From positions 1 through 64,000 of the IMG/VR virus record IMGVR_UViG_3300032156_000005: a stretch of DNA of 64,000 bases; one strand, 5' to 3'. Under the pieces are notes generated by a model, which saw only the letters and a list, made by a program, of their open reading frames with translations, was not told where the DNA came from and did not search any database. Positions within the stretch are counted from its first letter, which is position 1; every line of letters begins with the position of its first letter. The DNA is from a virus (taxonomy: Duplodnaviria > Heunggongvirae > Uroviricota > Caudoviricetes). The translations under genes and the position numbers were made by a program. Shown in pieces: positions 9,509-61,414 of the stretch.

Positions 9509-10022
9509 TATGTATGGATCTTTAGTTAAAGCAAACGCCTACTTTCTCACCCGCTTACATACGGACGCTTGGGATAATGAGTCTACTGTAAATCAAACAA
9601 AGGCCATGTATACGGCCACTAGGATTATTGATCGACTCAATTACAAGGGCTATAAGAATTCAGTTTATCTAGTTCTAGAAGCTGCCGAGGAATATGACGA
9701 CGTTACGCAGGCAGAGCGTAGAGCCGCCGAAATCACACAGGCATTAGAATTCCCACGTGACGCCGATACAGTAACACCAGAGGATATTGAAACCGCGTGT
9801 TTTGAGATCGCCCTAGCATTACTCGATGGCGTTGATCCGGATATTGAATTAGAGAATTTGGGTACTACTGGTCAGAATTATGGTGGAGTAAAAACCACGT
9901 ATAATAGAGACCAGCAACCTATTGAACACTTACTACATGGTGTGCCGAGTGCTATGGCTTGGAGAATCTTAAAGCCATTTCTACGCGACGGACGTGCAGT
10001 TACTACTGTGAGAGTAAATTAA
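9501..10022 (+). CDS. Hypothetical head-morphogenesis protein (174 aa)
   Basis: ATG at 9501 overlaps the portal stop (ATGGCTAG). The track ORF 9429..10022 is the same frame with an upstream in-portal start. Confidence 0.4.
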   Translation: MASMYGSLVKANAYFLTRLHTDAWDNESTVNQTKAMYTATRIIDRLNYKGYKNSVYLVLEAAEEYDDVTQAERRAAEITQALEFPRDADTVTPEDIETACFEIALALLDGVDPDIELENLGTTGQNYGGVKTTYNRDQQPIEHLLHGVPSAMAWRILKPFLRDGRAVTTVRVN

Positions 10023-28908: not shown

Positions 28909-29520
28909 CTATATCATCATCAATGTCTTGTACACCTTTGCTTCTGCCAATGCATCAGCCAGGGCGTCGTGGGCATTAATTACTGGTATGTGAAGCTGTT
29001 TACACATAGCCGATAGACCTACCGTAGGGAAGGGAATCTGCTCCCCATGAAAATGGGCCCTATCATTTATTGACACGGCAAAAAGCATGGAATCTCTTGG
29101 ATGTGGATGAAAAAACTGATTGAAACTTTCCATACCCAACCATGCCTTTAGGAACCCAGCTTCAAATGCCCAGTTGTGTGCCAATGGAACAAGTGATTTA
29201 CGAAAAGGTAATTCAAGTCGTTGAAACCACTCATCAAATAAGTCAGCCACACGCTCTTGACTAACACCTTCTTTTGCCAGTTTGAATATGTCAATACCGT
29301 GGATTATCGTAGCTTCCTTTTCAGCACGCTCAGGATACATTGGTGCGATTTTCCAGTAAAAAGGATGCACGTCCTCTAATGGTTCCATGTCGCTATTAAG
29401 TGGTTGTACCGCTATCTGAATAATCTCATGATATCCTGGCATAGTGCCAGTAGTCTCAACGTCCACTGCCGCTAGTAGGTTGTGGTTAATGTTTACTAGA
29501 CTGTTGTAGGTCCTAGGCAT
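28909..29520 (-). CDS. DnaQ-like 3'-5' exonuclease (DEDDh family)
   Basis: Exo I AAVDVETTG, Exo II HNWAFEAGFL, Exo III HDALADALAEAK. Confidence 0.7.
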   Translation of the reverse strand: MPRTYNSLVNINHNLLAAVDVETTGTMPGYHEIIQIAVQPLNSDMEPLEDVHPFYWKIAPMYPERAEKEATIIHGIDIFKLAKEGVSQERVADLFDEWFQRLELPFRKSLVPLAHNWAFEAGFLKAWLGMESFNQFFHPHPRDSMLFAVSINDRAHFHGEQIPFPTVGLSAMCKQLHIPVINAHDALADALAEAKVYKTLMMI

Positions 29521-29999
29521 TAGCGACTCCTCTTCTTCGCTGGCTTCTTCGCTGGCTTCTTCGCTGGCTTCTTCGCTGGCTTCTTCGCTGGCTTCTTCGC
29601 TGGCTCAGTTGGCTGAATGTTGTATGGGTTATCCTGAATCTCCAGTGGATTATTGGGCATGTTATTTAATGACTCGGGTAACAATCCCTCTTTAATCATT
29701 TCTTCCGTCTCAAAGTAGCAGGCAAGATTCCACAAGGCTGCTACCAGATGTGGCTCATCACGATGCCCAATTAGATGCTTACCAGCATGCCTGATAGCAC
29801 TATCGATGTAACACCGTAGATCAATTCCCTTTCTCCAATTATCAGGTCCATATTTGGTGGCACCGTCCTCAAAGTGTTGTGCTAAACGGATCAGTGATCG
29901 CATAGGCAGCAGATCCATTCGCCCCTTGCCTGATGCACAATCTCGCACGGCCCCGGTAGAAAATTGTCTACGTGTTCCAGAATCCTTTAATGTGGCCAT
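29520..29999 (-). CDS. dATP/dGTP diphosphohydrolase-like N-terminal domain protein with C-terminal (PAKK)6 basic tail
   Basis: Motifs SGKGRMDLLP...GATKYGPDNWRKG...RHAGKHLIG.RDEPHLVAALWNLACYFE match, from memory, the phage dNTP-diphosphohydrolase N-domain pattern. C-terminus PAKKPAKKPAKKPAKKPAKKPAKK. Confidence 0.45.
   Translation of the reverse strand: MATLKDSGTRRQFSTGAVRDCASGKGRMDLLPMRSLIRLAQHFEDGATKYGPDNWRKGIDLRCYIDSAIRHAGKHLIGHRDEPHLVAALWNLACYFETEEMIKEGLLPESLNNMPNNPLEIQDNPYNIQPTEPAKKPAKKPAKKPAKKPAKKPAKKRSR
29532..29603 (-). repeat. Perfect 12-bp x 6 tandem repeat (CTTCTTCGCTGG) encoding (PAKK)6
   Basis: Six identical head-to-tail copies between 29532 and 29603. Confidence 0.9.
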
Positions 30000-33627: not shown

Positions 33628-33660
33628 GTATTATCCTCGTGACAATTTTACTCTAACAGG

Positions 33661-34320
33661 ATAGACGGGGATTGGGGGATAAAAGCACGTAAAAAATATT
33701 GAACTTAACAATTGAAATGAACATCGGTCGAATTGAAATTAACATTTGGCGATTTTTGTCTTTTTTAGTAACTTGATTTTATGTAAGTTGTTTGCTTATA
33801 AGTAGTTAGAATAAAAACATATCCCATAATTTCTTTTTTAGCAAAGTGGATATTTTTAAGTGTTCATTTCAATTGACGTAACTCCTCGACATCAAATAAG
33901 TTGCGAGATGTGTAAAAGTGACTTAGATTAAAAACACCCCCTTTTATTTCCGATTCAAAAATCAAAGACTTCTCTTAGACAGAAAACACACTTACTATTT
34001 TCCTGACCCTTGTACCCCTAAATAGGAAAAAGAAATAAAAGGTAGTGTTTTTAATCTAAGTCATTTTTACTCATCTCGTAACTTATTTGATGCCTAGGAG
34101 TTACGTCAATTGAAATGAACACTTAAAAATATCCACTTTGCTAAAAAGAAATTCTGTGGTATGTTTTTATTCTAACTACTTATAAGCAAACAACTTACAT
34201 AAAATCAAATTACTAAAAAAAATAAAAATCGCCAAATGTTAATTTCAATTCGACCGATGTTCATTTCAATTGTTAAGTTCAATATTTTTTACGTGCTTTT
34301 AACCCCTAATCCCCGTCTAT
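33661..34320. repeat. ~660-bp near-perfect inverted repeat (palindrome) with six 15-bp iteron-like motifs; candidate replication origin / partition site
   Basis: 33661-33800 is the reverse complement of 34181-34320 (~97% identity), and arm identity decays towards an ~82-bp unique centre (33951-34032). Motif CAATTGAAATGAACA (or GAATTGAAATTAACA) sits at 33709, 33730 and 33861 (inverted), and mirrored at 34107, 34237 and 34258. It lies between the divergent primase-helicase and ParB-like genes. Confidence 0.85.
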
Positions 34321-34340
34321 ACCAACAGAGGATTCTTTCT

Positions 34341-34628
34341 ATGCTAGGAACACCACGACTATTAGATAATGGATACATCATCTACCCACAGAGAGGTAGT
34401 GTCATACCTCCATGCCCCGAGGGTTATCGCAGACAATCGGAACGAGGGCCAGGGGCTTGGATATTTGTACCACTATGGAAATTATGTGAATTTCGTAGTA
34501 AAGTACTAAGGCGTAGAGAGGATTGTAATTGCGAAATAATAGTACATATTTGTGGTCATACTCTATATCAAGGCTCTGAATTAACAGCCGAACAATGTGA
34601 AGCCTGCAACTTATGTCCGAAAAGCTAG
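34341..34628 (+). CDS. Small Cys-rich protein (95 aa)
   Basis: ATG at 34341 preceded by GAGG 8 nt upstream. Cys motifs CPEGY, C-x-C (DCNCE), CGH, CEACNLC. The track ORF 34236..34628 extends upstream into the palindrome arm and is probably too long. Confidence 0.3.
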   Translation: MLGTPRLLDNGYIIYPQRGSVIPPCPEGYRRQSERGPGAWIFVPLWKLCEFRSKVLRRREDCNCEIIVHICGHTLYQGSELTAEQCEACNLCPKS

Positions 34629-35590
34629 CCAATATTGACGTTAAACTATTGATGCCGTCATTTGTACTACTGCGACTGGTGGATAAGACGTCACTAGATT
34701 ATATCGAAATGCGGGATTCAATAGCTGCACACGGATTTTTCGGCTCCATTTGTGTCCGTGTTTCTATACGACACCCTGGAAAATATGAGGTAATCAATGG
34801 CCTACATCGTTACTGTTGTGCTCTCGACTGCGGACTCGAGACTGTCCCATGTATCATCAAAGAGGCGACAGACGCTGAGGTAAAAAACTGGCAAGTGCAG
34901 GCGAATTTAATACGCCGAGAGACTACAAATGCGGAGTATGCGGCACGATTAAAGATGCTTTTTGTTGAAAATCCTGAACTCACACTGGAGGTTCTATCAG
35001 TCGAATTACATTGTCGCCCGCAGAAATTACAAGATATCTTGAGGTTAAATCGACTCATTCCCGAGGCAAAAAAACACCTTGACGTAGGCAATCTTCCATT
35101 GACATCCGCATATTCACTGTGCAGATTACCAAAACAATTGCAAGAAGACCTAGTGGATAAGGCACTATCACTGAGTGCGCGGGAGTTTGTACAACTCTCT
35201 AACGGATACAGTAAGGCGTTTAGAGAGGCAATTTATGACGGAAAATTCAGTAAATATCTTCAAAGTGACACACCTCCACAACCCCATCTTCGGTCTTTTG
35301 CGGACGTTAGAAATGAATACAATCGGCCACTCAACGGGGAATTAATTCTAAAAGACCTAAAAAATTCTACTCCAATTGATATTTGGCTGGCATCTTTGGC
35401 ATGGGTTTTGCACTTAGATGCAGAGTCTATCCGCAAGACACGAGAATTGGCAGTTAAACGGGCCGAGACAGAAAAGGATAGCATAGTACGTAGGGTACAG
35501 AATCGAGCCGAATGTGCCACAATAAGGCAAGCAGCCAAGAAAATGGGAATTGACCCTAGCGATCAGGTAATGATCGAGGGTATGACGTAA
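34613..35590 (+). CDS. ParB-like N-terminal domain protein
   Basis: KYEVINGLHRYCCALDCGL matches the ParB/sulfiredoxin GxxR arginine-finger box. An upstream Glu/Asp-containing box lies in DYIEMRDSIAAHGF. Confidence 0.55.
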   Translation: MSEKLANIDVKLLMPSFVLLRLVDKTSLDYIEMRDSIAAHGFFGSICVRVSIRHPGKYEVINGLHRYCCALDCGLETVPCIIKEATDAEVKNWQVQANLIRRETTNAEYAARLKMLFVENPELTLEVLSVELHCRPQKLQDILRLNRLIPEAKKHLDVGNLPLTSAYSLCRLPKQLQEDLVDKALSLSAREFVQLSNGYSKAFREAIYDGKFSKYLQSDTPPQPHLRSFADVRNEYNRPLNGELILKDLKNSTPIDIWLASLAWVLHLDAESIRKTRELAVKRAETEKDSIVRRVQNRAECATIRQAAKKMGIDPSDQVMIEGMT

Positions 35591-35628: not shown

Positions 35629-36363
35629 ATGAAGAGTTCACTGGTCACCGTTAATCTTGAGAATCTACCCGCCGTCGGCTATAATGCCGCCAGCGACCTG
35701 CTCAGTGATTTGACCAAGAGTAATGAGTATCTAAACCGTGTCCAGTTGTACACCAAGGGTGCTGCAATTGACAAGGGTCTGATTCCACCTGGACACTACG
35801 GTGTGCCAGATGGGGACGACAACATCAAGGGACTTGGTGTGGAGATTGATATTCTGCCACTATGTTGCCGCCCGAAGGCTTTGGATCTCCGTGATAAGGA
35901 CACAATTGTAACAAATTATGACCCCACCTCGGATACCTTTAAGACAATCAAGGAACTAGGTTCTACGCAGAATTCTGGTTGCATGTATGGTCTTACCTTC
36001 CTTATTTTCGAGCGTAGCACAGGACAATTTTATGAACTATTCTGTGGCACGAAATCGATGCGAACAGAATCGAATAAGATTGCAGACTTTTTGTCTTTGA
36101 CAGAAAAGGACGCTGCATATCTCGAAGAGAAGAAGGGAATTCATACGGATCCACATGGTCCGCTTCCCTGCACGTTGAAGGCTAAGTATGTGACGAAGCA
36201 TAACTATGGCTGGCATGTGCCAGTCTGTGTTAAGTGTTCGACACCATTTAGTAATCTACCCCCTATTGATAGGATTCAAGCCGAGGTGGAAAAGTTTATG
36301 GGACTAAAAAATACGGAGATTGAGAAGGTCGAAGAGACCTCCACTCCGAAGCGGGCACGATAG
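35629..36363 (+). CDS. Hypothetical protein (244 aa)
   Basis: Strong RBS AAGGAG 8 nt upstream. Followed by a strong terminator. No recognised motif. Confidence 0.4.
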   Translation: MKSSLVTVNLENLPAVGYNAASDLLSDLTKSNEYLNRVQLYTKGAAIDKGLIPPGHYGVPDGDDNIKGLGVEIDILPLCCRPKALDLRDKDTIVTNYDPTSDTFKTIKELGSTQNSGCMYGLTFLIFERSTGQFYELFCGTKSMRTESNKIADFLSLTEKDAAYLEEKKGIHTDPHGPLPCTLKAKYVTKHNYGWHVPVCVKCSTPFSNLPPIDRIQAEVEKFMGLKNTEIEKVEETSTPKRAR

Positions 36364-36789: not shown

Positions 36790-36862
36790 AAGCAGGGTGG
36801 AGTAGTTGGTAACTCGATTGGCTCATAACCAATAGATCGTCGGTTCAAGTCCGGCCCCTGCC
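36790..36862 (+). tRNA. tRNA with CAU anticodon (Met / fMet-like / possibly Ile2-lysidine)
   Basis: Manual cloverleaf fold. Acceptor 36790-36796 pairs with 36855-36861 (6 bp plus an A1·C72 mismatch). U8, D-stem GAGU/ACUC, D-loop AGUUGGUA with G18G19. Anticodon stem AUUGG/CCAAU, loop CUCAUAA. 5-nt variable loop. T-stem GUCGG/CCGGC, T-loop UUCAAGU. Discriminator A. No encoded CCA. Confidence 0.8.
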
Positions 36863-36910
36863 ACTATGGACGTACCGTTCTTTTGTCACGGTAACTTTTA
36901 GGGGGTAAGT

Positions 36911-37366: not shown

Positions 37367-37590
37367 CACTGGGATGGCTTGGTAATATACTAATTTTGAT
37401 GTCGCTCTGGAAGACTGGATGTAAAAAGAAATCCGGTTGGATCTGGAGTTTTGCGGGTAATATAGTATGGATAGCATACGCCACTCAATTAAGAATGTGG
37501 GATATGTTTTTTGTTGACGCAATTTGTATAGGCGTAGCAATTTACAATTATATTAAATGGAGATCCGATGACAATAAACGAATTGATTAA
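37363..37590 (+). CDS. Small membrane protein (75 aa)
   Basis: Two Trp-rich hydrophobic helices. ATGA overlap with the upstream gene. Confidence 0.35.
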   Translation: MTLGWLGNILILMSLWKTGCKKKSGWIWSFAGNIVWIAYATQLRMWDMFFVDAICIGVAIYNYIKWRSDDNKRID

Positions 37591-37903
37591 CGAATCACAT
37601 CAAACCGCAATTGACAAAGGTTGGTGGGTCAATACAGACCGAAATTTTGGCGAACTCCTCATGCTCATGGTGGGTGAATTATCAGAGGCGATGGAAGAAT
37701 ATAGGAAGCACGGTACAGACGTCTTAAACATGCTGTACACAAAAGATGGAAAACCCGAAGGGATTGCGGTTGAATTCGCCGACGTACTAATTCGTATGGC
37801 CGATACGTGTGCTCACTACCACATTCCACTGGACGAGGCACTACGCATCAAGTTGGAATTCAATAAGACACGATCATATAGGCATGGGGGTAAGTTAGCT
37901 TGA
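37568..37903 (+). CDS. MazG-like nucleoside triphosphate pyrophosphohydrolase
   Basis: All-alpha NTP-PPase signature: LMLMVGELSEAMEEYRK (E-x-x-E-x-x-E) and EGIAVEFADVLIRMADT (E-x-x-D second metal-binding helix). Confidence 0.65.
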   Translation: MTINELINESHQTAIDKGWWVNTDRNFGELLMLMVGELSEAMEEYRKHGTDVLNMLYTKDGKPEGIAVEFADVLIRMADTCAHYHIPLDEALRIKLEFNKTRSYRHGGKLA

Positions 37904-38818: not shown

Positions 38819-41590
38819 ATGATACCCTTAAATACGCCCACCACCATCAAGTTGGAAACAACGACCCAATCAGGGGCTCGTGTTAGGGTTCCAGCTACAA
38901 TCTTGGCCACTGACGCCAGGATTGAATTCTTAAAATCCCCCTTCTCTTTGAAGGACGAGATTAAGGCAATGAAGCATGCCGAGTGGCAGGGGTACAAGGA
39001 TCCACCAAGGAAAATTTGGACAGTAGAAAACTGTCAACGTAATTGGTTTCAATTACAGGTCATGATGGGGGAAAATCCCTACGAATGGTTTGATCGTCCA
39101 CTCCAGCATTTCAAATATGATCGCCCTCTGATGGGTCACCAGTTTGATATGTCGGACGCTGGACTCACATACCATTATCAACTCTTCGGAGCAGAAATGG
39201 GCTGCATTGCCGGGGACGCTATTGTTCACGTAAACCGTGCTGGTAGGGGATTTGCGTTTTGTTTGAGTGAACTTTGTTATAAATTCCACGGTGGTCGGAG
39301 TAGCGGCACGACGATGCGTTCCGACACCCGCGGTAGGTCATGGGATCTGAGTATTCCAACCTATGTCCAAGGATTTAAGGGCGACCGAATTGGACTAGTT
39401 AAGATACAGGATGTATTGTATAAGGGGCGGAGAGAGGTTGTTCGCGTGACTTTGGAGACAAAATCACTGACACTGACTCCAGATCACGAGGTCTGCATAG
39501 GAGCCTTTAGGTATGGTAAGTTTAAACCAGTTCAGGATCTAGTAATTGGTGACCGTGTTATGGTACGACTTGATGATGGAGTATCCGATGAGGTTAATAG
39601 CGAGGTACAGGCACTCCCGAGTACGCTAGTAAAGACAACAACGCGTGGTATGGGTTACTGGCTAGATAAAGATGGATATATACGTATCGGCGGTCTAAAG
39701 GGTCATCCACGTTGGGGTGCCCACGGAGTCTACGAGCATCTTCTAGTAATGGAAGATTTGCTTGGCCGACCTGTGCAGATTGGCGAAGAGGTTCACCATA
39801 AGAATAAACAGCGATGGGATAATCGTCCGTCGAATTTAATTTTGTGTGCGACTAAAACAGACCACATGGCATTGCATCAAAATTACAAGAATTTAAAATG
39901 TGGGTGTTATGTGTTTGAATGTGTCACCGGCATTAAAGACGCCGGGTCGATTGATGTCTATGATATCCAATGTGAGGGTCCATACCACAACTTTGCCGCT
40001 AATGATATAATTGTCCATAACTGCGGCAAAACTTTGTCAGCCATTGAAACGATGGAGAAGTCAGGTAAAAAGAAGTGGTGGTGGGTAGGTCCTAGATCTG
40101 GACTCTATGCAATCGAGCGCGAATTTAAGAAATGGGAAATCAGTCCCAACCTTGAAGTGGAGTTAATGACCTACGAGGGTCTGGTAAAACGCATGGGAAT
40201 GTGGAAGTCAGGCGACCCCGCTCCAATGGGTATTGTCTTCGACGAAATCAGCAGGTGTAAAACTGCCAAGACGCAACGAACACAAGCCGCCCAGGCTATT
40301 GCAGACGGTGTCCGTGCTGATTGGGGTCTAGAAGGTTACGTCCTTGGCATGTCTGGCACCCCATCCCCCAAGTCACCTGTGGATTGGTGGGCGCCGACGG
40401 AGATCATTTGGCCTGGATTTTTACGCGAGGGGGATTCTAATGCGTTCAAATTTAGACTTGGGATTCACAAAAAAGAAGAGAGTGCTATGGGTAATGCCTT
40501 CTGGCAACTCGTGGACTGGAGAGACGACGAACGAAAATGTGATGTTTGCGGAGAATTTAAGGAAGAGGGTATGCATTCATGTCGTATCGGCACGGATTTG
40601 AATGGGACGGAATCGGACATTCATGATTTTAAAGCCAGCATAAATGAGGTGGCATACCTTAATGAGCGACTAAAGGGGTTGGTCATCGTGAAGCTGAAAA
40701 AGGACTGCCTCGATCTGCCAGAGAAACAGTATCGACAGGTATTCTGTAAACCATCACCAGCAACCGTCCGAGTTGCTGAAGCCTTGATGAAATCGGCACC
40801 AAATACCATTACTGGTCTAACTCGTCTTCGTGAATTGAGCGACGGGTTTCAGTATAGGGACAAGGTCGTTGGTAAGGAAACTTGTCCAATATGCAAGGGC
40901 ACTTGTTTGAATACTTACTGGGTAGATCCAGAAGATTCTGAGCGTGCTTTTACTATGACCGATATGTTAGACGCAGAGTATGTATCTACATTGATTCAAA
41001 CTGAGATGCCATGTGTATCATGTAATGGCACGGGCGAAGTCGCTAAGATCGAGCGTCAAGTGAAAGAAGTACCGTGTCCCAAGGAAGCGGAGTTAATTAA
41101 TCTCCTAGACGAAAACGAAGAGACTGGCAGGTTGGTTGTATTCGCTGGTTTCACTGGTTCGATTGACAGAGTGACCAACGTATGTATGAAGCAGGGTTGG
41201 GACGTGATTAGGGTTGATGGACGTGGTTGGTTGACTTTTAAGGCTGACGGAGAAACAACAGCCGAAGCGCCATTGGATTATTGGGCTGACGTTGTGAATC
41301 ACCCACGAGTAGTATTTGTTGCACATCCGAAGTCTGGCGGTATGGCCCTGACATTGACCGAAAGTAGAATGATCTGTTTCTACTCGAATGACTACAATCC
41401 AGAATCCCGAAGTCAGGCCGAGGATCGTATACATCGTCCTGGAATGGATATTAATCGTGGAGCAACAATAGTTGACTTGTTACATTTACCCACCGATTTA
41501 AAGGTGCTGGAGATACTGAAAGCTAATAGGCGTCTAGAACTAATGTCTCTCGGCGAATTTCAGGGCTGCTTTCAAGATGTCGAAGCATAG
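38819..41590 (+). CDS. SNF2/DEAD-like helicase interrupted by an intein in the Walker A motif
   Basis: Exteins give Walker A FGAEMG|CGKT and a DExx-like FDEISRC. Helicase C-terminal motif VI is QAEDRIHRPGMDI, preceded by ...VVFAGFTGSIDRV.... Cys4 clusters CPICKGTC...CVSCNGTG. The intein occupies 39203..40021. Confidence 0.7.
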   Translation: MIPLNTPTTIKLETTTQSGARVRVPATILATDARIEFLKSPFSLKDEIKAMKHAEWQGYKDPPRKIWTVENCQRNWFQLQVMMGENPYEWFDRPLQHFKYDRPLMGHQFDMSDAGLTYHYQLFGAEMGCIAGDAIVHVNRAGRGFAFCLSELCYKFHGGRSSGTTMRSDTRGRSWDLSIPTYVQGFKGDRIGLVKIQDVLYKGRREVVRVTLETKSLTLTPDHEVCIGAFRYGKFKPVQDLVIGDRVMVRLDDGVSDEVNSEVQALPSTLVKTTTRGMGYWLDKDGYIRIGGLKGHPRWGAHGVYEHLLVMEDLLGRPVQIGEEVHHKNKQRWDNRPSNLILCATKTDHMALHQNYKNLKCGCYVFECVTGIKDAGSIDVYDIQCEGPYHNFAANDIIVHNCGKTLSAIETMEKSGKKKWWWVGPRSGLYAIEREFKKWEISPNLEVELMTYEGLVKRMGMWKSGDPAPMGIVFDEISRCKTAKTQRTQAAQAIADGVRADWGLEGYVLGMSGTPSPKSPVDWWAPTEIIWPGFLREGDSNAFKFRLGIHKKEESAMGNAFWQLVDWRDDERKCDVCGEFKEEGMHSCRIGTDLNGTESDIHDFKASINEVAYLNERLKGLVIVKLKKDCLDLPEKQYRQVFCKPSPATVRVAEALMKSAPNTITGLTRLRELSDGFQYRDKVVGKETCPICKGTCLNTYWVDPEDSERAFTMTDMLDAEYVSTLIQTEMPCVSCNGTGEVAKIERQVKEVPCPKEAELINLLDENEETGRLVVFAGFTGSIDRVTNVCMKQGWDVIRVDGRGWLTFKADGETTAEAPLDYWADVVNHPRVVFVAHPKSGGMALTLTESRMICFYSNDYNPESRSQAEDRIHRPGMDINRGATIVDLLHLPTDLKVLEILKANRRLELMSLGEFQGCFQDVEA
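39203..40021 (+). mobile_element. Intein (273 aa) with HNH homing-endonuclease domain, inserted in the helicase P-loop
   Basis: Starts Cys (CIAGDAIVHVNRAG, block A) and ends ...NDIIVHN followed by +1 Cys (CGKT). The internal HNH motif is EEVHHKNKQRWDNRPSNLILCATKTDHMALH. Removing it restores the contiguous P-loop GAEMGCGKT. Confidence 0.75.
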
Positions 41591-42286: not shown

Positions 42287-42977
42287 ATTATTGATCGACG
42301 ACGTACTACCTACGCTTTCTAGTAAAGAGTCCGTAGTATGTTTATCCCGTAGTGGAATAGTCCCATGTGACTTCAAGGCTATTACTGACTACATGCAAGA
42401 GACTGGTTATCCACCGACACCTGGACCATACTCAGGAAAAGAGATGTTCCTGGATTTGGGATTTAATACGTATGACGACATAGACTTCGTACCGGACGAA
42501 GGCGTGTCGATTGTACACGATATGAACACACCCTATTGTGGTGACGAATACAGTCTCGTATTTGAATGCGGTACAATGGAGCATATCTTTGATACTGCTC
42601 AAGTGTTTAAGAATACAATTAATCTGTGTGAAGTTGGTGGGACAGTCTGCCATATATCTCCACTGACGTGGTTGAATCATGGTTTCTATAACTTTTCATT
42701 AACACTATTTTACGATGTCTATCGAAACAATGGTTTTGACGACTTCAAATTTTGGTTGATAAACTGGCCTAGGAATTATGGACAAGTGGGCTCCTCAAAG
42801 GCCATGAAGATTGATTTCACACCAACTCAAATTTTACCACCAATTGGTTCTGATTTTTTGATGGTCGCTTTTACGGCACGAAAATCGCATAAGTGTGATT
42901 TTAAGATTCCAATACAAGCGGCCTATGACCCCAGCCTCGCATTAAATACTCCACTACGAAAGCATACAAATGAATAG
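42264..42977 (+). CDS. Putative class I SAM-dependent methyltransferase
   Basis: Motif I-like MFLDLGF, acidic motif II DFVPDEG, motif III region YSLVFECGTMEHIFD, then NLCEVGGTV (L..GG). The true start may be the internal Met near 42393. Confidence 0.45.
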   Translation: MLTLGIVRLLIDDVLPTLSSKESVVCLSRSGIVPCDFKAITDYMQETGYPPTPGPYSGKEMFLDLGFNTYDDIDFVPDEGVSIVHDMNTPYCGDEYSLVFECGTMEHIFDTAQVFKNTINLCEVGGTVCHISPLTWLNHGFYNFSLTLFYDVYRNNGFDDFKFWLINWPRNYGQVGSSKAMKIDFTPTQILPPIGSDFLMVAFTARKSHKCDFKIPIQAAYDPSLALNTPLRKHTNE

Positions 42978-44139
42978 ATGTTTAGCTTGCGGACACTTAG
43001 TTTCACGCCAATTATTCAATCCAGGTCCACAACCGTTATCGGCGTTGAATTTACCTCGGAGCGAGTCTGAAGCAGTGGATGCCAACAGATTTCCAATGAA
43101 CTTTCGATGCTGTGGAATCTGTGGCCATGTGTGGAACACTGACTTCGAGTACACTAAAGTACCCTATGCGGGGGACTCAAATCTCATGTATAACAGCGGT
43201 GCGTTGTGGCAAGACCACATGCAAATGCTGGTGAGTAAGTTAGCTGAGAACAAGGCTATGTGGGTTAAGAATCCAGTTATTGATATTGGTTGTGGCGATG
43301 GGCAATTTCTTTCGTTACTACTCAAAGCAGTACCCGAAGCAAAGTGTGTGGGCTTTGAACCGGGTATTGATGGTACTAAAATTACCGAGTTTGAATGTGT
43401 ACAGGATTACTTTCGACCAGAGCGAGATATTGCGGCAAGACAACCATCGTTACTTATTTGTCGCCACGTCTTAGAACATATCGCGGACCCACGTGATTTT
43501 ATTGCCTCTGTTGCATACTGGTGTGGACAATGTTCCGTTGCGACCGTGTTTTTAGCTGAAGTTCCATGTTGCGAAAAGGCATTGGAGTCGGGGAGAGTGT
43601 CGGACTTTTTATACGAACATGTTTCCAACTTTACACTGAACAGTCTATATGCGATGTTTGGCACTTCTGGTTTTAAGTTGCTTGAAACTTCACGTTTATA
43701 CGGGGACGAAGTGGTCGTTGGATTTTTCCAGCCGCATGAGGAAGCTTTGAAACAGAATCATCGGTCAATGCTTAAATTCTCGACTTACGTGCAGGACTCA
43801 AGAACAAATATCCAATTGAAGCAATCTAATTTGGATGGCGATGTTGTTCTATGGGGTGGCACTGGAAAGAGCGCAGCATTTTTGAATATGTTCGGATTCG
43901 ATGCAGATCGCTTTCCTGTGGTGGTCGATTCAGATCCACTAAAAGTAGGTAGGTATGTTCCAGGAACGGGGCAGAGGATTGATTCACCAGATAGTTTGGT
44001 AGGACGAACACCAACTATCATTATTACAACTGCATGGCGTGCTAATGACATCTATGCAGAGATCAATCGCCGTGGCATTAGATACAAGAGTCTATTAGTT
44101 CTTAAAGACGGAGACTTGAATGAGTATACCCAATCTTGA
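42970..44139 (+). CDS. Zinc-ribbon C-methyltransferase-like SAM methyltransferase (TylCIII/NovU-type architecture)
   Basis: N-terminal C-x-x-C...C-x-x-C zinc ribbon (CLACGH...CCGICGH), SAM motif I VIDIGCGDGQFLSLL, then a C-terminal extra domain (~120 aa). The arrangement is as in NDP-sugar C-methyltransferases. Confidence 0.55.
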   Translation: MNRCLACGHLVSRQLFNPGPQPLSALNLPRSESEAVDANRFPMNFRCCGICGHVWNTDFEYTKVPYAGDSNLMYNSGALWQDHMQMLVSKLAENKAMWVKNPVIDIGCGDGQFLSLLLKAVPEAKCVGFEPGIDGTKITEFECVQDYFRPERDIAARQPSLLICRHVLEHIADPRDFIASVAYWCGQCSVATVFLAEVPCCEKALESGRVSDFLYEHVSNFTLNSLYAMFGTSGFKLLETSRLYGDEVVVGFFQPHEEALKQNHRSMLKFSTYVQDSRTNIQLKQSNLDGDVVLWGGTGKSAAFLNMFGFDADRFPVVVDSDPLKVGRYVPGTGQRIDSPDSLVGRTPTIIITTAWRANDIYAEINRRGIRYKSLLVLKDGDLNEYTQS

Positions 44140-45877
44140 TTTGTATGACTGCCTAGCCCTACTAAAGAGGCAAGACTACCTAAAATTAACTCAAAATTTG
44201 ATCGAGGTAGTTAAACATTTTAACCTTGTCTGTTATACGCAGCTAAGTCGAGCAGAGCGCGTTAATTTAGACGATTGTATGTCTACATTTTTCTTTATTT
44301 TTTCTCATCCCAGTTTTCAAATACCTGCTGATTACGCGAAGGTATTTGTTAATATAAATCATGTCATTTCAAATATGGCAATGATGTCGTCAGTTGGTTC
44401 AACGCTTCCGGCATTAAATCGAGTAGCCCTACAGGATAATAACTACGTAAAGCTTCTAACATTATCAACCTGTCAGACACCACTCGATGTGAATTTTAAC
44501 GACCTGTTTACTCCTAATGCGGAGTTGACTTCGGTTTGGTGGTTGAATTATCAGACGTCAGCAGCGGGCACGCTTACCAAGGAAGTACACGATCGAGTAG
44601 TTTCCCATCTTCAGAGTATGCCAGAGAAGTTTGTATTGTCGGATTTTCGCACGGCACCACTTTATTTTCAAAGTACCTACTACTCTCCTGAAACTGATTA
44701 TATCATTAAAACAGAGTTGAATCGTCAAGTACGATCCAAGTTGTCCAGTGCAAAGATACAAACAATAAATCCTAAGAGAGTGGCCATTATTACTGATAGA
44801 TGGCAACCCACCACAGCGGTATATAAGAGTTGTTATCATCAAATTGAAGCGTTATCGAACAAGTATGACCTAACTTTGGTTTATTTTTCAGAGGACAGAG
44901 AATCAAAGATTGATAGGGGGCTCTTCAAAGAAACTAAGCGAGTTTACTTGGAGCCAGATATGAAGCGATTAAATTTCTCTGAGATCAAGCATAACGATTT
45001 TAAGTTTGCATACTTCCCAGATATCGGCATGAATTACGAGTCGGTTTGTCTGTCAAATATGCAAGTTGCACCAATCATGGCCACGGGTTACGGCCATCCA
45101 GTTAGTACCTTTGGTAGTAAGATTGACTATTTTATTGGTGGTATGGACGCTGAAGTGCCAGAACTCGCCGAGAAGAATTACAGTGAGAGACTAGTGCTTA
45201 TACCTGGAATTGGGGCTCATCCGGTCTTTCCAAACTACGTGCGAAAAAACCCCACCCCGTCTAAATTTATTATCAACTGTTGTTGGACTGCTCCAAAGAT
45301 TAACTACCCAATGCTAGAAGCATTGAAAGAAATCAAGTCGCGGGCTTCCAAGCCAGTGCATTTTCAGTTTTTCCCGTCCTGGACGGTTAGCCGATACCAG
45401 TCCGCATTACCATTTCTAACTGGAATGGACAAGGTATTTGAAGGAAATTCGACGGTATATTTTGACACTCCCTACCAACAATACCTGGAGTTGTTGGAAC
45501 AAGGTCGATTTTCACTAGACTCGTATCCGTTTGGGGGTTATAACACGGTTGTGGACTCATTGTTTGTCGGATGCCCAGTTGTAACGATTGAAGGGTCTAG
45601 ATTCTTTAATAGGGCATCATCTGCGTTAATGCGTAAGGTTGGATTACCTGATCTGATAACAACGAGCGTTGAAGAGTACATTGGACTGGCTGTTGAACTA
45701 ATTGACAATAGCCAAGAATTAGATAGTCTACGATCCGTAATAGGTAGTACGGATTTAAAGAGCCTGTTAGTGGACAACAATGAACCTATTTCATTCGCAA
45801 ATGCCATTGAGTATCTCGTAGATACCCACATCGAATTGAAGGCTTCGGGGAGTCGAAAACCGATAATCTTGGCATGA
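44120..45877 (+). CDS. GT41-family (O-GlcNAc-transferase-like) glycosyltransferase
   Basis: C-terminal catalytic region FDTPYQQYLELLEQGRFSLDSYPFGGYNTVVDSLFVGCPVVTIEGSRFFNRASSALMRKVGLPDLITTSVEEYIGLAVELIDNSQELDSLR aligns by eye with the OGT block [49 protein letters not shown]. Confidence 0.55.
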   Translation: MSIPNLDLYDCLALLKRQDYLKLTQNLIEVVKHFNLVCYTQLSRAERVNLDDCMSTFFFIFSHPSFQIPADYAKVFVNINHVISNMAMMSSVGSTLPALNRVALQDNNYVKLLTLSTCQTPLDVNFNDLFTPNAELTSVWWLNYQTSAAGTLTKEVHDRVVSHLQSMPEKFVLSDFRTAPLYFQSTYYSPETDYIIKTELNRQVRSKLSSAKIQTINPKRVAIITDRWQPTTAVYKSCYHQIEALSNKYDLTLVYFSEDRESKIDRGLFKETKRVYLEPDMKRLNFSEIKHNDFKFAYFPDIGMNYESVCLSNMQVAPIMATGYGHPVSTFGSKIDYFIGGMDAEVPELAEKNYSERLVLIPGIGAHPVFPNYVRKNPTPSKFIINCCWTAPKINYPMLEALKEIKSRASKPVHFQFFPSWTVSRYQSALPFLTGMDKVFEGNSTVYFDTPYQQYLELLEQGRFSLDSYPFGGYNTVVDSLFVGCPVVTIEGSRFFNRASSALMRKVGLPDLITTSVEEYIGLAVELIDNSQELDSLRSVIGSTDLKSLLVDNNEPISFANAIEYLVDTHIELKASGSRKPIILA

Positions 45878-49061: not shown

Positions 49062-49988
49062 TTGAAAAGGACCCTGAAGATGACGCTGAATGACCAGTTA
49101 TTACAGCAAGCAGAGAAGCAGGTTGAGGGTTCCGACGCACTTGTAAAGTGTACAGCAGTGTGCTCAAAACTGATGCAGGCGCTTCCACGTATCTTTCCAG
49201 AACCAGATGAACTCTACTCTCGTCCGGATTTTGAGTATGATGCTGCATTGATCTATAATCTCCGGAAGGGCGAAAGGGGCGAATCACTCCGAATGATTCT
49301 TAGTGTCACTTTTGCTGCGACCGAGTGGGAGGGAGAAAAGGATGGAGATTTCTTTAATCTACGAGTTCTAGTAAAGATTGACGGACTCTCTCTGCTCCTT
49401 AAAATAATTGGTGCCGATCCAACAGAGTATAAATTAAGTAGTCCACGGCAGATAGGACTTAAATTAATAGGAACTCTTGTCTGTACTAAGTTTGTTCCGT
49501 GGGAGATCACTCGTCCAGACGTGACACCAGCAATCTTACTCGAATCGTGCGTCCGGTCAAATGTTGGCTCCTACGTAGCCTCCAGACAATCTCAAATTCT
49601 AAGTGAACTTGCAGTGGTGCTACCGACGTTACCTCAAGCTGATGAAGTTTCGGCCGCATTGGGGCTAAACTATGACGCTGATATCACTTATATACAGGAT
49701 CCTTACGGTAAAAAACGGCAGTATTTAGATAAGCATCTAGGATACCGTGGTTGGGCGGCGACTGTTGATAAAAAGACAGCGGATTTTAGCCTGCATACTA
49801 TCCTCGATATCAAGAGTAAACTGGGTACAATACGATTACGTGTGACTATTTTCTCAGCCTGTCAGTATCGAGAGCAGTTATTTCTTGTTGCTGACTTGCC
49901 TTCAATGTTAATATACCGAGCCTCACGTGAAACCGATGAGGATTACACAAAAGTTTTACAGCAGTTTGAGGGAAAATATGACGATTGA
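49062..49988 (+). CDS. Hypothetical protein (308 aa)
   Basis: ORF with no recognised motif. Confidence 0.4.
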   Translation: MKRTLKMTLNDQLLQQAEKQVEGSDALVKCTAVCSKLMQALPRIFPEPDELYSRPDFEYDAALIYNLRKGERGESLRMILSVTFAATEWEGEKDGDFFNLRVLVKIDGLSLLLKIIGADPTEYKLSSPRQIGLKLIGTLVCTKFVPWEITRPDVTPAILLESCVRSNVGSYVASRQSQILSELAVVLPTLPQADEVSAALGLNYDADITYIQDPYGKKRQYLDKHLGYRGWAATVDKKTADFSLHTILDIKSKLGTIRLRVTIFSACQYREQLFLVADLPSMLIYRASRETDEDYTKVLQQFEGKYDD

Positions 49989-50493
49989 CGAGGTGGCTCT
50001 GTATCTGAAAGACAAACATAACCTACTAGAAGAGGCACTTGCCCTCGAATCCCTAGCCCCACGTAGGCGTAGTATACACCACATGTCACTGCGAGAAATC
50101 GGTGGCCTAATCGGAAAATCTTATGATTGGGTTCGACGCCGATTAGCCTTACGTAAGTTACCGCCTGAGATACAGAAAGCAGCCGAAGAGGGTATTTTTA
50201 CAGCAACCGATTTACAGGTCGTAACGACTTTACCCAAGGCTAAGTGGAATAGTACAGCCAGAAGGGTAATGCGAGAAAAGAAGGCAGGTAAAAAAGTAGG
50301 TATCGCCGACTTACATAAACGAACCACCCGACAGACACCACAACGTATGACTCAGATGCTTGTCTACCTGAGTAATAAGGAGATTGGCGGATTAGTGCCA
50401 CGAATGGTGGCGTGGTGTATGGGTGTTATCGACGATAAGGAAATATACTCTGATATTAAAGAGTTTTTAGGAGACCAGGATGCAGAAGACTAG
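49978..50493 (+). CDS. HTH DNA-binding protein (171 aa)
   Basis: HTH-like MSLREIGGLIGKSYDWVRRRLALRKL. ATG overlaps the upstream stop. Confidence 0.35.
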   Translation: MTIDEVALYLKDKHNLLEEALALESLAPRRRSIHHMSLREIGGLIGKSYDWVRRRLALRKLPPEIQKAAEEGIFTATDLQVVTTLPKAKWNSTARRVMREKKAGKKVGIADLHKRTTRQTPQRMTQMLVYLSNKEIGGLVPRMVAWCMGVIDDKEIYSDIKEFLGDQDAED

Positions 50494-54716: not shown

Positions 54717-56396
54717 ATGCGAACCGGTTCTCGAATTATTGGAGCAAGACGAATGAGATTTCATCTATTTGGGTTAGCGAACATCCCAACGTGTAAAGAG
54801 AATACCTATGAACCCATGACTCCACTGGTTTGGAACATGGCTAAGATGCTACATGACCACGGCCATCACGTCATCTTCTATGGTGCCGAGGGGAGTAATC
54901 CACCTTGTAGCGAGCTAGTAAATATCGTTCCAAAGGATTTGTTACCTGATCCCGCTATTGGAAATCACGGTGTACCCATGGCAGCATGGAAAAACGACGG
55001 CGGCAGCCCTTCCTGGCAGTCTTTCATAAATACTGGACGACTGGAATTGCGTAAACGCTACCAGACGGGTGATATTTCACTCATTAGTTTTGGTCAGTAC
55101 CAAAGATTCGTGGCAGAGGAATCAAAACTCGCTTGTGAATTCATGTGCGGATACTCAGGTATTTTTAGTTACCATAAGGTTTTTCCATCTAGTGCTTGGA
55201 TGCATTATCTATATGGTGAACTCAAAATGGAACGAAACCCCACTTGGACTGATTGTGTCATCCCACATTACCTGGATCTAAGTGACTTCAGATACCAAGA
55301 GGAAAAGGGCGACTATCTTCTATGTCTGGGTCGAATCGATCGAGATAAGGGCACAGACATCGCCATCGACATCGCAAATAGGAGTGGCTCCAAGATCATC
55401 GTTGCCGGTGTCGATATGGTAACGCACGATATTCCGGATTGGATTAAACAAATGCCGGGTAACGTAGAATTTGTTGGCTACGTGGATACAAAGCGAAGAC
55501 TCGAACTATTACGTGGTGCCAAGGCATTATTGCATCCATGTAGGTGGTTGGAGCCATTTGGGATGGTTTTAATTGAATCGTTGGCTTGTGGCACGCCGAT
55601 TATTGCTAGTGACTGGGGTGCCCTACCTGAGATTATTGAAGAGGGTAAGACTGGTTTTTGTTGCCGGGATATGTCTGAGTTTATACAGGCCGTAAAGAAT
55701 GTGTCATACTTAAATCCGCGTGATTGCCGTATTTCCGCCGAACGGGATTATGGGCTGGAGATTGCGTATACAAGGTATATGAAGTACTTTACGCGACTTG
55801 CCAAACTACTGGGAGGTGGCTGGTATGAGACCAGAGGTATCTGGCGTGGACCAGATGTTGTTGGGCGGGTACGCCGACTACAACCGACTGATAAACCACT
55901 ACGAGGGGCAGAGATCGGTGTTGATCGCGGTGCTTTGTCAGGGTATCTCATGTCTGAACTACCTAATCTCAATTTGTTATTGGTTGATACCTGGAGTACC
56001 TTCGCAGACGATTCAGGGTACACAAAATCTGGTGATCTTGTAACCCAACGAACACAAGAACAGCGGGATGCTGATCTGTTTGAAACTATGCGTGTCACTC
56101 CTCGTGATCGTTCTTGTATCTGTAGAATGACATCCGCCGAAGCTTCTGAAAAGGTTTTAGACGGATCGCTTGATTTTGTATTCATTGACGCAGACCATAG
56201 TTATGAGGGTGCCAAATCTGATATACAGTTATGGGCCTCTAAGATACGAGATGGTGGCATTCTTTGCGGGCATGACTTCGGTATGGAAACGTGGTTCCCT
56301 GACTGGGGTGTTACAAAGGCGGTTACTGAGTACGCGGAAAGCGTTGGTAAAACTGTTGAGTTGGGTTCTGATTGGACATGGTTTATCCAGGTGTAA
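54717..56396 (+). CDS. Glycosyltransferase (GT-B, GT1/GT4-like) fused to a class I SAM-dependent methyltransferase
   Basis: GT signature EPFGMVLIESLACGTPIIASDWGALPEIIEEGKTGF (E-x7-E motif). The C-terminal ~190 aa carry MTase motifs GAEIGVDRGALSGYL (motif I-like) and LDFVFIDADHSYEGAKSD (TylF/macrocin-O-MTase-like FIDADH). Confidence 0.6.
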   Translation: MRTGSRIIGARRMRFHLFGLANIPTCKENTYEPMTPLVWNMAKMLHDHGHHVIFYGAEGSNPPCSELVNIVPKDLLPDPAIGNHGVPMAAWKNDGGSPSWQSFINTGRLELRKRYQTGDISLISFGQYQRFVAEESKLACEFMCGYSGIFSYHKVFPSSAWMHYLYGELKMERNPTWTDCVIPHYLDLSDFRYQEEKGDYLLCLGRIDRDKGTDIAIDIANRSGSKIIVAGVDMVTHDIPDWIKQMPGNVEFVGYVDTKRRLELLRGAKALLHPCRWLEPFGMVLIESLACGTPIIASDWGALPEIIEEGKTGFCCRDMSEFIQAVKNVSYLNPRDCRISAERDYGLEIAYTRYMKYFTRLAKLLGGGWYETRGIWRGPDVVGRVRRLQPTDKPLRGAEIGVDRGALSGYLMSELPNLNLLLVDTWSTFADDSGYTKSGDLVTQRTQEQRDADLFETMRVTPRDRSCICRMTSAEASEKVLDGSLDFVFIDADHSYEGAKSDIQLWASKIRDGGILCGHDFGMETWFPDWGVTKAVTEYAESVGKTVELGSDWTWFIQV

Positions 56397-57744: not shown

Positions 57745-58401
57745 ATGCCGAAACGAAGTTGGAAACTTGATGATCCATTGTTTGAATCCCTGCCAAAATA
57801 CGATAAAGATCGCACGCAAGAATTACTAGACTTGATTCAGTCCAATAAGGACACACCAAAAGACGAATTAATACTCCAGCTTCTAGCATTATGCAAGATA
57901 ATTTTACAGAGATTTTTGCGTGGTAATCATGCTATTAAACGGAATCTCCCTGATATAATTGGTATTCTTATGTTGCGTACTTGTGCTTGGGTTGACACCT
58001 TAAAGCATGGGCCGAAAAATAATGTAAAATCCCCGAGTTATTATTGGCAGCTAGTAAAGAATGAAATTAATGATTTTAAACTGGATGGTACTAACCCTAA
58101 TGTCTCTGGTGCTTGGTTGTGTAGGCAAGCAAGACACGGTAAATTACAACCTCAGCAGGTTTATTTGAAAGAGGATCTATTACAGATAAATCCAACTGAG
58201 ACTTTAGAGCTAGAAGATATACTAATCACACTGGCTGAAACGGAACAGGAACGTGGTGTTGTTATCCTGCGATTTAACGGATACACGGATGCCGAAATTG
58301 CAACCCAGTTTAATACAACCAGACGGTGCATTCAACTTATTCGAGCAGGCTTAGAATCTAGGTACGATCACTATTTACAGAGGAACAACCAATGCGTCTA
58401 G
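57745..58401 (+). CDS. Sigma-70 region-4-like transcription factor (putative phage sigma factor)
   Basis: C-terminal QERGVVILRFNGYTDAEIATQFNTTRRCIQLIRAGLESR resembles sigma-70 region 4 / LuxR-type HTH. Confidence 0.45.
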   Translation: MPKRSWKLDDPLFESLPKYDKDRTQELLDLIQSNKDTPKDELILQLLALCKIILQRFLRGNHAIKRNLPDIIGILMLRTCAWVDTLKHGPKNNVKSPSYYWQLVKNEINDFKLDGTNPNVSGAWLCRQARHGKLQPQQVYLKEDLLQINPTETLELEDILITLAETEQERGVVILRFNGYTDAEIATQFNTTRRCIQLIRAGLESRYDHYLQRNNQCV

Positions 58402-60933: not shown

Positions 60934-61414
60934 GAATTTAATGCGGCAGGCATACCTCTATGGAGACTGGTTCAGTGTTGACAAGAGCACACATCTGGGT
61001 GCAATACTCGTCGATGACACGGGTAAAATGCGTGCAATGGGGGTAAATACATTCACGGACGACACCCAAAAGGAAGTGGAAGCTAATTATTTCAGGCCGC
61101 GTAAATACCAAGTTACCGAGCATGCGGAACGTTCAGCCATCTACTATGCAGCTAGGAATGGCATAGCAACGCGTGGATTGACACTCATTTGCCCGTGGGC
61201 ATCGTGCCCAGATTGTGCCAGGGCTGCGGTTATGGCCGGTATCAAGGAAGTGATTGGGCATAAACAGGCATTTGATAGGACGCCAGATCGGTGGAAAGAC
61301 GAGATCAATGTAGGTTTCGAGATCCTAAAGGGTGGTGGTGTAACATACACCTTCTACGATGGTAAAATCGGGGACGTAGAGAATCTATTTAATGGGGAGA
61401 TTTGGCATCCATGA
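60914..61414 (+). CDS. dCMP deaminase
   Basis: Zinc-binding motifs HAERSAI (H-A-E) and CPWASCPDCARA (PC-x-x-C) of the cytidine/dCMP deaminase family. Confidence 0.8.
   Translation: MVAVEIKNLMRQAYLYGDWFSVDKSTHLGAILVDDTGKMRAMGVNTFTDDTQKEVEANYFRPRKYQVTEHAERSAIYYAARNGIATRGLTLICPWASCPDCARAAVMAGIKEVIGHKQAFDRTPDRWKDEINVGFEILKGGGVTYTFYDGKIGDVENLFNGEIWHP

Follow-up and report, generated by a model that had tools for sequence, protein, structure and literature searches.

The 64,000-nt stretch analysed here, hereafter the window, covers positions 1 to 64,000 of the virus record IMGVR_UViG_3300032156_000005 (Caudoviricetes) and forms part of a 121.5-kb ENA contig, of which 57 kb lie beyond the window. 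Two operons of this phage are divergently transcribed from a common intergenic region of 713 bp, hereafter the gap, with a GC content of 30% compared with ~44% for the window. The leftward operon encodes a primase-helicase, a metallophosphoesterase, a MazZ-like deoxynucleoside triphosphate diphosphohydrolase and an RNase T-type exonuclease. The rightward block extends over ~30 kb and encodes a 95-amino acid protein, a ParB/Noc-like protein, the protein p244, an intein-containing helicase, a family A DNA polymerase, a ribonucleotide reductase, ligases, ThyX and dCMP deaminase. Because the gap must hold the promoters of both operons, it is in any case a cis-acting control region, common to the two sides of a conserved, divergently arranged replication module. 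The original prediction described in this region a ~660-bp palindrome with six symmetric iterons and offered four options for it: a phage origin, a parS-like centromere, a cruciform-forming regulatory switch or a foldback transposable element.

Self-alignment of the gap bore out the palindrome. Its two arms are reverse complements with 94.5% identity; they differ at 16 positions and their alignment has one 1-nt indel (Table 1). Repeat finding divides the arms into an outer part of 178 nt at 96% identity and an inner part of 116 nt at 94%; the inner part had been put at 85-90% and the non-palindromic centre at 82 bp (33951-34032), both of which are corrected here, the latter to 81 nt. The alignment of the gap with its own reverse complement scores 817 bits, compared with a maximum of 42.8 bits in 100 shuffles. 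When the window is cut into 89 consecutive 713-nt tiles, the one with the palindrome scores 492 bits, the runner-up 52.7 bits and the median tile 19 bits, and the single-strand fold of the gap reaches -290 kcal/mol (z = -49). No further copies of the arms or of the centre were found in the 64-kb window. The region has no nucleotide match among 50,697 deposited phage records, whether searched in near or in distant mode, and an Rfam search of the region returned just one spurious sub-threshold match to a plant microRNA precursor, caused by the long hairpin.

Allowing up to two mismatches, the 14/15-mer AATTGAAATGAACA occurs six times in the 64-kb window, and 6/6 copies are located inside the arms, at the positions originally predicted; dinucleotide shuffles contained on average 1.09 copies and never six. 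The window iterons are asymmetric, their palindromic part being the CAATTG core alone. In each arm, a low-stability segment lies between the pair of outer iterons and the middle iteron, which has the opposite orientation; these two segments are the lowest-stability DNA of the region, mostly 18-25% GC (extremes 18-30%). Since both iteron orientations are present inside one arm, the arrangement points to recognition of the iterons as double-stranded DNA rather than RNA. The conserved arm motifs CCCCGTCTAT and TTTTGCTAAA do not recur genome-wide above chance.

Table 1. Features of the palindromic intergenic region and of its flanking genes, in window coordinates
Feature	Position	Strand	Remarks
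Intergenic control region between two divergent operons	33628-34340		Open reading frame (ORF) map, start codon and Shine-Dalgarno (SD) positions, GC content; top self-complementary tile
Palindrome left arm, 290 nt	33661-33950		94.5% reverse-complementary to right arm
Non-palindromic centre, 81 nt	33951-34031		Contains asymmetric motif AAAGACTTCTCTTAGACAG at 33964-33982
Palindrome right arm, 289 nt	34032-34320		Self-alignment
Outer iteron 1, left arm	33709-33723	+	CAATTGAAATGAACA
Outer iteron 2, left arm	33730-33744	+	GAATTGAAATTAACA; 21-nt period
Middle iteron, left arm	33861-33875	-	Orientation opposite to outer pair
Middle iteron, right arm	34107-34121	+	Mirrors 33861-33875
Outer iteron 2, right arm	34237-34251	-	
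Outer iteron 1, right arm	34258-34272	-	
Left low-stability segment	33745-33860		20-25% GC; between facing iterons; candidate unwinding element
Right low-stability segment	34122-34236		18-30% GC; mirrors left segment
Short inverted repeat beside middle iteron	33877-33905		CGTAACT-N15-AGTTGCG; overlaps TTGACG-N17-ATAAGT
Mirror copy of short inverted repeat	34077-34105		CGTAACT-N15-AGTTACG
Gene-proximal small dyad, left	33651-33665		CTCT-AACAGG-ATAGA; 20-35 nt 5′ of primase start; includes left AACAG
Gene-proximal small dyad, right	34316-34330		TCTAT-ACCAAC-AGAG; 5′ of 95-amino acid gene; includes right AACAG
Primase-helicase, 905 amino acids	30910-33627	-	Archaeo-eukaryotic primase (AEP), superfamily 3 (SF3) helicase and winged helix; candidate initiator
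95-amino acid Cys/His-rich protein	34341-34628	+	Opens rightward operon
ParB/Noc-like protein	34613-35590	+	N-terminal domain and helix-turn-helix (HTH); candidate alternative binder of repeats
p244, 244 amino acids, no family match	35629-36363	+	Always linked to module
Nucleotide-metabolism/modification genes	29520-29999	-	
	37568-37903	+	
	60914-62082	+	
	42970-45877	+	
	54717-56396	+	

Inverted duplications can arise in multiple displacement amplification or in assembly, and a separate assembly of this locus (Logan SRR9617952), whose flanking sequence and encoded flanking proteins are identical to those of the window, breaks at the repeat, with two contigs ending precisely at the outermost iterons (33709 and 34272). 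This is the expected behaviour of an assembler that meets an inverted repeat. A chimeric inverted duplication is extremely improbable, given that the mismatched arms flank a unique centre and different genes, and that the corresponding structure of relatives is conserved across many lineages and was assembled identically in independent samples (L001/L002/L035, L004/L008 and L006/L033). Over the gap, same-species contigs from different samples share 99.8-100% identity, and no empty site was seen among them; thus, the structure is stable and reproducibly assembled.

Relatives were drawn from IMG/VR, JGI, ENA, NCBI and Logan contigs, with primase-helicases 79% to ~36% identical to that of the window; a metagenome scan added few loci. 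In ~17 related uncultured-phage lineages, the gap between the primase-helicase and ParB-like genes is also palindromic, and the divergent order of primase-helicase, gap, 95-amino acid gene, ParB-like gene and p244 is conserved, the 95-amino acid gene being missing in the distant group and in L044. The palindrome is present in almost every lineage and usually occupies most of the gap, with its axis near the midpoint, while the gap itself ranges from 0.14 to 1.1 kb among the phages of the clade. The longest palindromes are those of L004 (576 nt at 71% identity), L005 (570 nt at 71%), L007 (566 nt at 82%) and L039 (487 nt at 76%), followed by L011 (397 nt), L006 (344 nt at 89%, plus an outer 27-nt pair), L041 (308 nt, plus outer pairs sharing the axis), L009 (244 nt), L043 (150 nt) and L001 (105-nt outer arms). 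In L012, L014, L019 and L038, the group with 36-46% identity, they measure 100-250 nt, and in L010 and L040, whose gaps are merely 137-139 bp, they measure 84-86 nt. L044 and L045 have short inverted repeats at most, and no palindrome was found in the gap of L042 (where synteny is broken), L017 or L020. At L045 and L021, the ParB-like gene was not found adjacent, and the inverted repeats there are weak or off-centre. The L045 module sits within a 2.58-Mb contig, so that some members of the family may be integrated or plasmid-like and not lytic phages. In L044 (60% GC), an AbiEi/AbiEii toxin-antitoxin pair (8399-9945) is located beside the primase operon.

The conservation of the palindrome is one of architecture and not of sequence. 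A BLAST search with the window palindrome against all loci recovered short patches around the iterons and nothing longer. In a joint alignment, arm identity was 66-86% within a genome and 43-59% between genomes, and a ~70-nt insertion specific to the window phage occurs in both arms, within the low-stability segments. Based on these two observations, the arms evolve in concert; the symmetric architecture would therefore be kept by selection or continually regenerated, while the arm sequence changes.

These comparisons also bear on the proposal that the block is a foldback, MITE-like (miniature inverted-repeat transposable element) non-autonomous element inserted between genes, to which its long terminal inverted repeats, its unique centre and the AACAG pentamers near both ends, read as a target-site duplication, would be suited. 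Nevertheless, the palindromes of relatives lie at the same locus and in the same module order with diverged sequence, which indicates vertical descent and not insertion; the precise absence from close relatives that would mark a mobile element was not seen in any of them. The element has a single copy of its arms and centre in 64 kb and no counterpart in the phage records searched, no same-species contig has an empty site, and the arms are the sole available promoter space for both operons. Both pentamers exist, but they lie at non-equivalent offsets, 1 nt (33655-33659) and 3 nt (34324-34328) outside the arm ends, and inside a conserved dyad; hence, they are not target-site duplications. Altogether, we regard a foldback element as highly unlikely.

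The relatives that align share an arm anatomy, which is described here in order, beginning at the centre and ending at the gene. The innermost element is an iterated site with ACGTAAGT after it, which has been lost in the window phage. A short inverted repeat (the window has CGTAACT-N15-AGTTACG, L007 has TAACCC...GGGTTA and L005 has GTAACCTC...GAGGTTAC), the middle iteron and a TTTTGCTAAAT-like block come next. Beyond these lie the outer iterons, two to four of them, oriented the other way and repeated every 13 or 21 nt, then a TTCAAnATTTTyTAyTTG block and, 20-35 nt before the start codon, a small dyad, GTyTAT...TAGAG, with a counterpart in nearly all relatives. Some relatives, L004 among them, have a lower AT content in the low-stability segment. 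The sigma70-like element TTGACG-N17-ATAAGT of the original prediction is present (33873-33901), but it fails a sigma-70 consensus scan and is not conserved; at its positions, relatives hold the variable short inverted repeat. The hairpin beside the middle iteron is strong in L005, L006, L007 and the right arm of the window; in L001, L004 and L039 it is weak or lacking. As at least seven pairs were formed in 12% of shuffles, the hairpin is suggestive only as a conserved element.

Relatives carry 5-11 copies of their own iteron variant. The layout is kept, i.e., an outer tandem set, an oppositely oriented middle site, an inner site and then the mirror image. One half of the iteron, TTGAAA, is constant, and the other half is phage-dependent: TGAACA or TTAACA in the window, L004 and L006; TGCTAA or TTCTGA in L007; CGCAAA in L001; and GGCAAA or CAGATG in L005. 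A TTCAAA type of iteron also occurs, besides the TGAACA, TGCTAA and CGCAAA types. In L039, the iteron is a palindromic 13-mer, TTTGAAATTCAAA. The same symmetric layout is formed by unrelated repeats in L041 (TTATCACCGG, three per arm) and in L012 and L019 (AAATCAAATCA, in inverted pairs). In the latter two loci (L012:2375-2856 and L019:1499-2029), with primase-helicases ~36% identical to that of the window, the AAATCAAATCA pairs are located near both gene-proximal ends of the gap, and a separate central palindrome lies between them; L012 additionally has a perfect 26-bp dyad, GGAAATCAAATCATGATTTGATTTCC.

The centre contains a motif common to relatives, AAGAsTTCyCTTAtA, which is found in strict form in L001 and L005 (same strand as in the window) and in L006 (opposite strand), and in looser form in L007 and L041. 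About 30 nt past this motif, we observed TCTCGCGT...AACTTTT or CCAACAAGG...ACTTT. The motif is inverted in L006, yet no flip-flop polymorphism of the centre was seen among same-species contigs, which are consensus assemblies.

The primase-helicase encoded at the left edge of the gap was predicted to be an AEP-primase/SF3 helicase on the minus strand. Our analysis confirmed both domains, an N-terminal AEP primase-polymerase and an SF3/P4-family helicase (residues ~620-830), and identified a C-terminal winged helix (residues ~830-905). Residues ~620-830 match DUF5906, the P4-family helicase region and the NrS-1 helicase (PDB); the TIGR01613 model scores 39 bits, below its 108.7 cut-off, and the sequence similarity to the P4 alpha protein is restricted to the helicase. 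The best structural matches of the winged helix are RFX (1dp7) and the phage P4 origin-binding domain (1ka8), the same templates with which the proposed origin-recognition winged helix of pRN1 ORF904 was defined (PMC2777425). The protein therefore has the initiator layout of pRN1 ORF904 and P4 alpha, in which a primase, an SF3 helicase and a winged helix have been described as an autonomous initiator (PMC2777425). Its winged-helix C-terminus is the region that diverges most between phages, with 37-62% identity compared with 75-98% elsewhere or in the helicase core, as would be expected if winged-helix specificity drifts together with the iterons. The protein has 403 database relatives at E ≤ 1e-20, some of them in metagenome-assembled genomes labelled Planctomycetota or Uhrbacteria.

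On the right side of the gap, the ParB-like gene on the plus strand does encode a ParB/Noc-type HTH protein, although it is the second gene of its operon and not the first, as had been assumed; the 95-amino acid gene precedes it. The 95-amino acid protein has eight conserved Cys/His residues and very few homologues. The alignment of relatives supports its start at 34341, whereas the gene callers in two public assemblies use 34236 (130 amino acids), inside the right arm. In P0122, a 94%-identical relative, the translation over the outer iterons is identical for 19 codons and the gene-proximal part has diverged, a point that we count in favour of the origin reading discussed below. The ParB-like protein matches ParB_N, and the parB_part and Noc models include its HTH; its residues 31-195, i.e., the N-terminal domain and the HTH, align with Spo0J (6sdk), ParB and Noc. 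Its GERRxRA motif for cytidine triphosphate (CTP) binding reads GLHRYCCA, in which the G and the last R are kept and the E and the first R are replaced.

Based on the sequence comparisons above, the most likely reading, to which we give about even odds, is that the gap is a bidirectional replication origin, composed of two mirror-image half-origins that overlap the mirror-image promoter and leader regions of both operons. Four observations favour this reading: a protein of the initiator type with an origin-binding-like domain is encoded at the edge of the gap; many iterons are limited to one site, with an easily melted stretch flanked by them in the window; phage-specific iteron variants are paired with a fast-evolving winged helix; and the mirror symmetry suits the loading of a pair of helicase rings that face opposite ways. 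In the proposed mechanism, the 14/15-bp iterons would be bound by the winged helix at the C-terminus of the adjacent AEP-SF3 protein, and in each arm the ~115-bp stretch of 18-25% GC between the outer and inner facing iterons would melt. The mirrored arms would then load two helicase rings in opposite orientation, and the AEP domains would prime both leading strands. Outward transcription from each arm would give both replication operons near-identical upstream sequences and the same regulation. Gene conversion from arm to arm would keep the arms alike within a genome, while the iteron and its binding protein would drift between phages. With the initiator, its winged helix, the AT-rich DNA and the conserved layout, the origin and control-region option of the original prediction has been strengthened; the parS-like option stays as a weak candidate, and the foldback option has been dropped.

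A purely regulatory role accounts for much of the same data, since two divergent promoters are required anyway. The gap would then consist of mirror-image promoters for the divergent operons, with the iterons as operators and the symmetry providing shared regulation, an explanation that we consider the main rival, possible but less probable than an origin. The outer iterons end ~65-85 nt 5′ of each start codon, which is a usual activator or repressor position, and the conserved dyad GTyTAT...TAGAG immediately precedes each SD sequence. The short gaps of L010 and L040 resemble back-to-back promoters around the dyad TGTTC...GAACA. The perfect dyads near the gene starts of L012 and L019 and the 13-bp palindromic iteron of L039 suit dimeric regulators. 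A ParB-like protein with a ParB/Noc-type HTH regularly adjoins the gap, and KorB of RK2 is a ParB-family transcriptional repressor; candidate operator binders are the ParB/KorB-like HTH protein, a small ParB-HTH protein (49927-50493) and the Cys-rich 95-amino acid protein. Nevertheless, six to fourteen sites per gap, arranged in tandem at intervals of 13 or 21 nt and separated by AT-rich DNA, are more origin-like than operator-like, and no recognisable sigma-70 promoter was found in either arm. Furthermore, the divergence of the ParB C-terminus does not follow the iteron type in the few taxa available: the C-terminus of L007 is the closest to that of the window, yet its iterons differ. Finally, the origin-binding-like winged helix of the adjacent initiator-type protein needs a cognate site somewhere.

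Promoters were also sought by eye at the gene-proximal sequences TTG-N19/20-TATnnT and CGTCTA; neither the -35/-10 nor the T4-late-like or extracytoplasmic function (ECF)-like type gave a clean fit. Elsewhere in the window, the product of 57745-58401 (+) has a weak match to region 4 of ECF sigma factors (E 8e-5), and 49927-50493 (+) encodes another ParB-HTH/KorB-like protein, of small size (E 3e-6). Either is an additional candidate to act on the palindrome or on non-canonical phage promoters.

A parS-like site on which the ParB-like protein loads and then spreads or slides, so as to condense, position or silence DNA without classical partition, is in our view improbable, if less so than a foldback element. 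The centromere arrays R1 parC and F sopC lie upstream of their own operons. As in parS, the KorB OB sites of RK2 and R1 parC-type sites, the repeat array of the window is located directly 5′ of an operon that encodes a ParB/Noc-like HTH protein, in this case with an alignable N-terminal domain and HTH, and such an array could double as promoter control. The array is conserved together with the ParB-like protein down to ~30% identity, and the two loci where this gene was not found adjacent are those with weak or off-centre inverted repeats noted above. However, ParB-family sites are 13-16-bp palindromes, such as the 16-bp parS and NBS sites, whereas the window iterons are asymmetric, although the L039 13-mer is palindromic. 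The CTP-binding GERR motif is degenerate (GLHR), and the genes present are those of a lytic phage that encodes its replisome. Additionally, no ParA-type ATPase was found among the ~35 window proteins scanned, a set that does not include every ORF or the other 57 kb of the contig. The same scan revealed no integrase, protelomerase or recombinase family. A protelomerase telomere-resolution site of the telRL type was considered separately and rejected, given that the 81-nt centre is non-palindromic and that no protelomerase or recombinase was present among the scanned proteins.

Several observations weigh against an origin at this locus. Within the window, GC skew reflects the orientation of the genes and gives no special signal at this site. 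L010 and L040 have one short palindrome and no iteron array in their gaps, and no relocated array was found in the 10-14 kb examined; thus, either the large array is dispensable or the origin lies elsewhere in these phages. The correspondence between iteron type and winged-helix sequence is weak: in sliding-window identity over few taxa, L004 and L006, which share the iteron type of the window, resemble its winged helix only slightly more than other relatives do. The ParB-like HTH protein is an equally constant neighbour of the gap, and the explanatory reach of a purely regulatory role must be counted here as well. With a spacer of 81 nt, a cruciform is unlikely to be extruded from duplex DNA. 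The cis region essential to pRN1 is downstream of its initiator gene and not upstream (PMC4234260, PMC2777425).

The gene content of the phage looks like that of a lytic type with its own replisome. Its relatives among cultured phages are remote at the protein level, with ~25-28% identity in the primase helicase core (25-28%), TerL (~25%) and PolA (~25%). The window encodes a MazZ-like dATP/dGTP diphosphohydrolase, a MazG-like pyrophosphatase, dCMP deaminase, ThyX and several methyl- and glycosyltransferases (Table 1). Taken together, these nucleotide-pool and transferase genes suggest that the phage may carry modified DNA or change its pool of nucleotides; among the scanned proteins, none was PurZ-like. 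The 923-amino acid SF2-type helicase of the rightward block (38819-41590, +) is split by an intein splicing domain with an HNH endonuclease, and a tRNA-Met (CAT) gene (36791-36864, +) is located 2.5 kb to the right of the palindrome.

Iteron origins, divergent control regions and the initiator architecture are already well known. The closest counterparts of the primase-helicase are P4 alpha with ori-crr, pRN1 ORF904 and the pri-rep-ori modules of Staphylococcus aureus pathogenicity islands and phage-inducible chromosomal islands (SaPI/PICI), which likewise combine a primase, an SF3 helicase and a C-terminal winged helix in one polypeptide (PMC2777425). Their origins also have short repeated binding sites adjoining the initiator gene, iteron sets around AT-rich DNA (PMC6092414) and iteron sequences that vary among related elements. 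The P4 alpha primase is of the DnaG type (PMC2777425), whereas that of the window is an AEP, and the pRN1 cis region is downstream of its gene (PMC4234260), whereas the gap is upstream of the primase-helicase gene. Moreover, these origins are not large palindromes, while in the window phages the entire divergent gap is mirror-symmetric with arms evolving in concert.

Symmetric origins are familiar from eukaryotic DNA viruses. The oriL of herpes simplex virus (HSV) is a 144-bp palindrome with symmetric initiator sites (UL9 boxes). Like the gap, it is located between divergent replication genes, ul29 and ul30, and is overlapped by their long 5′ untranslated regions (PMC10541914). It differs in belonging to a eukaryotic virus, in its SF2 initiator UL9 and in being near-perfect without a long spacer; the likeness is functional only, and there is no evidence of homology. 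The SF3 helicases of polyomaviruses and papillomaviruses offer a second parallel. The large T antigen of SV40 is an SF3 helicase with a separate origin-binding domain and forms two head-to-head hexamers. In the core origins of SV40, polyomavirus and papillomavirus, the initiator sites are likewise paired inverted repeats between divergent transcription units (PMC1779811). The SV40 core origin, however, spans ~64 bp with GAGGC pentamers, compared with the 290-bp arms, 15-bp iterons and 81-nt asymmetric centre of the window, and the fold of its origin-binding domain differs from a winged helix.

The homogeneity of the arms resembles that of gene-converted large palindromes, whose arms are also more alike within than between genomes and share insertions. 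In human Y-chromosome palindromes and in plastid inverted repeats, gene conversion keeps the arms alike. Those repeats extend over kb to Mb, whereas the window arms are hundreds of bp long and gene conversion is a proposed explanation of their likeness.

Both the structure of the palindrome and its conservation are well supported; its function we infer. The suggestion that such a structure is unusual for a phage origin held as far as it was checked: besides the lack of a nucleotide match among deposited phages, our search of the full-text literature found no description of a 0.14-1.1 kb whole-intergenic palindrome conserved as an architecture across a phage clade despite sequence turnover, nor of such clear concerted evolution of arms or of a matched series of iteron variants. 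We likewise know of no description of any of these three properties. A broader proposal, which we put forward as conjectural and rather doubtful at present, is that a large clade of uncultured double-stranded DNA phages uses a whole-intergenic palindrome as its origin, which would make it a bacterial-virus counterpart of the oriL of herpesviruses and of the core origin of SV40. Opposed AEP-SF3 rings would be loaded by iteron arrays that mirror each other, conversion coupled to replication or recombination would keep the arms alike, and iteron and winged-helix specificity would drift together.

At the practical level, the repeat breaks short-read assemblies at the outer iterons and misleads gene callers into placing an ORF start within an arm. 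Whatever its function, the region provides a clean case of arm-to-arm homogenisation in a non-coding inverted repeat of hundreds of bp, across many lineages and in a small genome. If the gap is an origin, the origins of a very large uncultured phage family would become easy to recognise by a sequence-defined signature, namely a palindromic AT-rich gap with a primase-helicase gene on one side and a ParB-like gene on the other. The gap would also offer a natural matched series of iteron and winged-helix variants with which to study the evolution of initiator specificity, and it would extend to a bacterial virus the symmetric-origin logic of those eukaryotic DNA viruses that use SF3 helicases.

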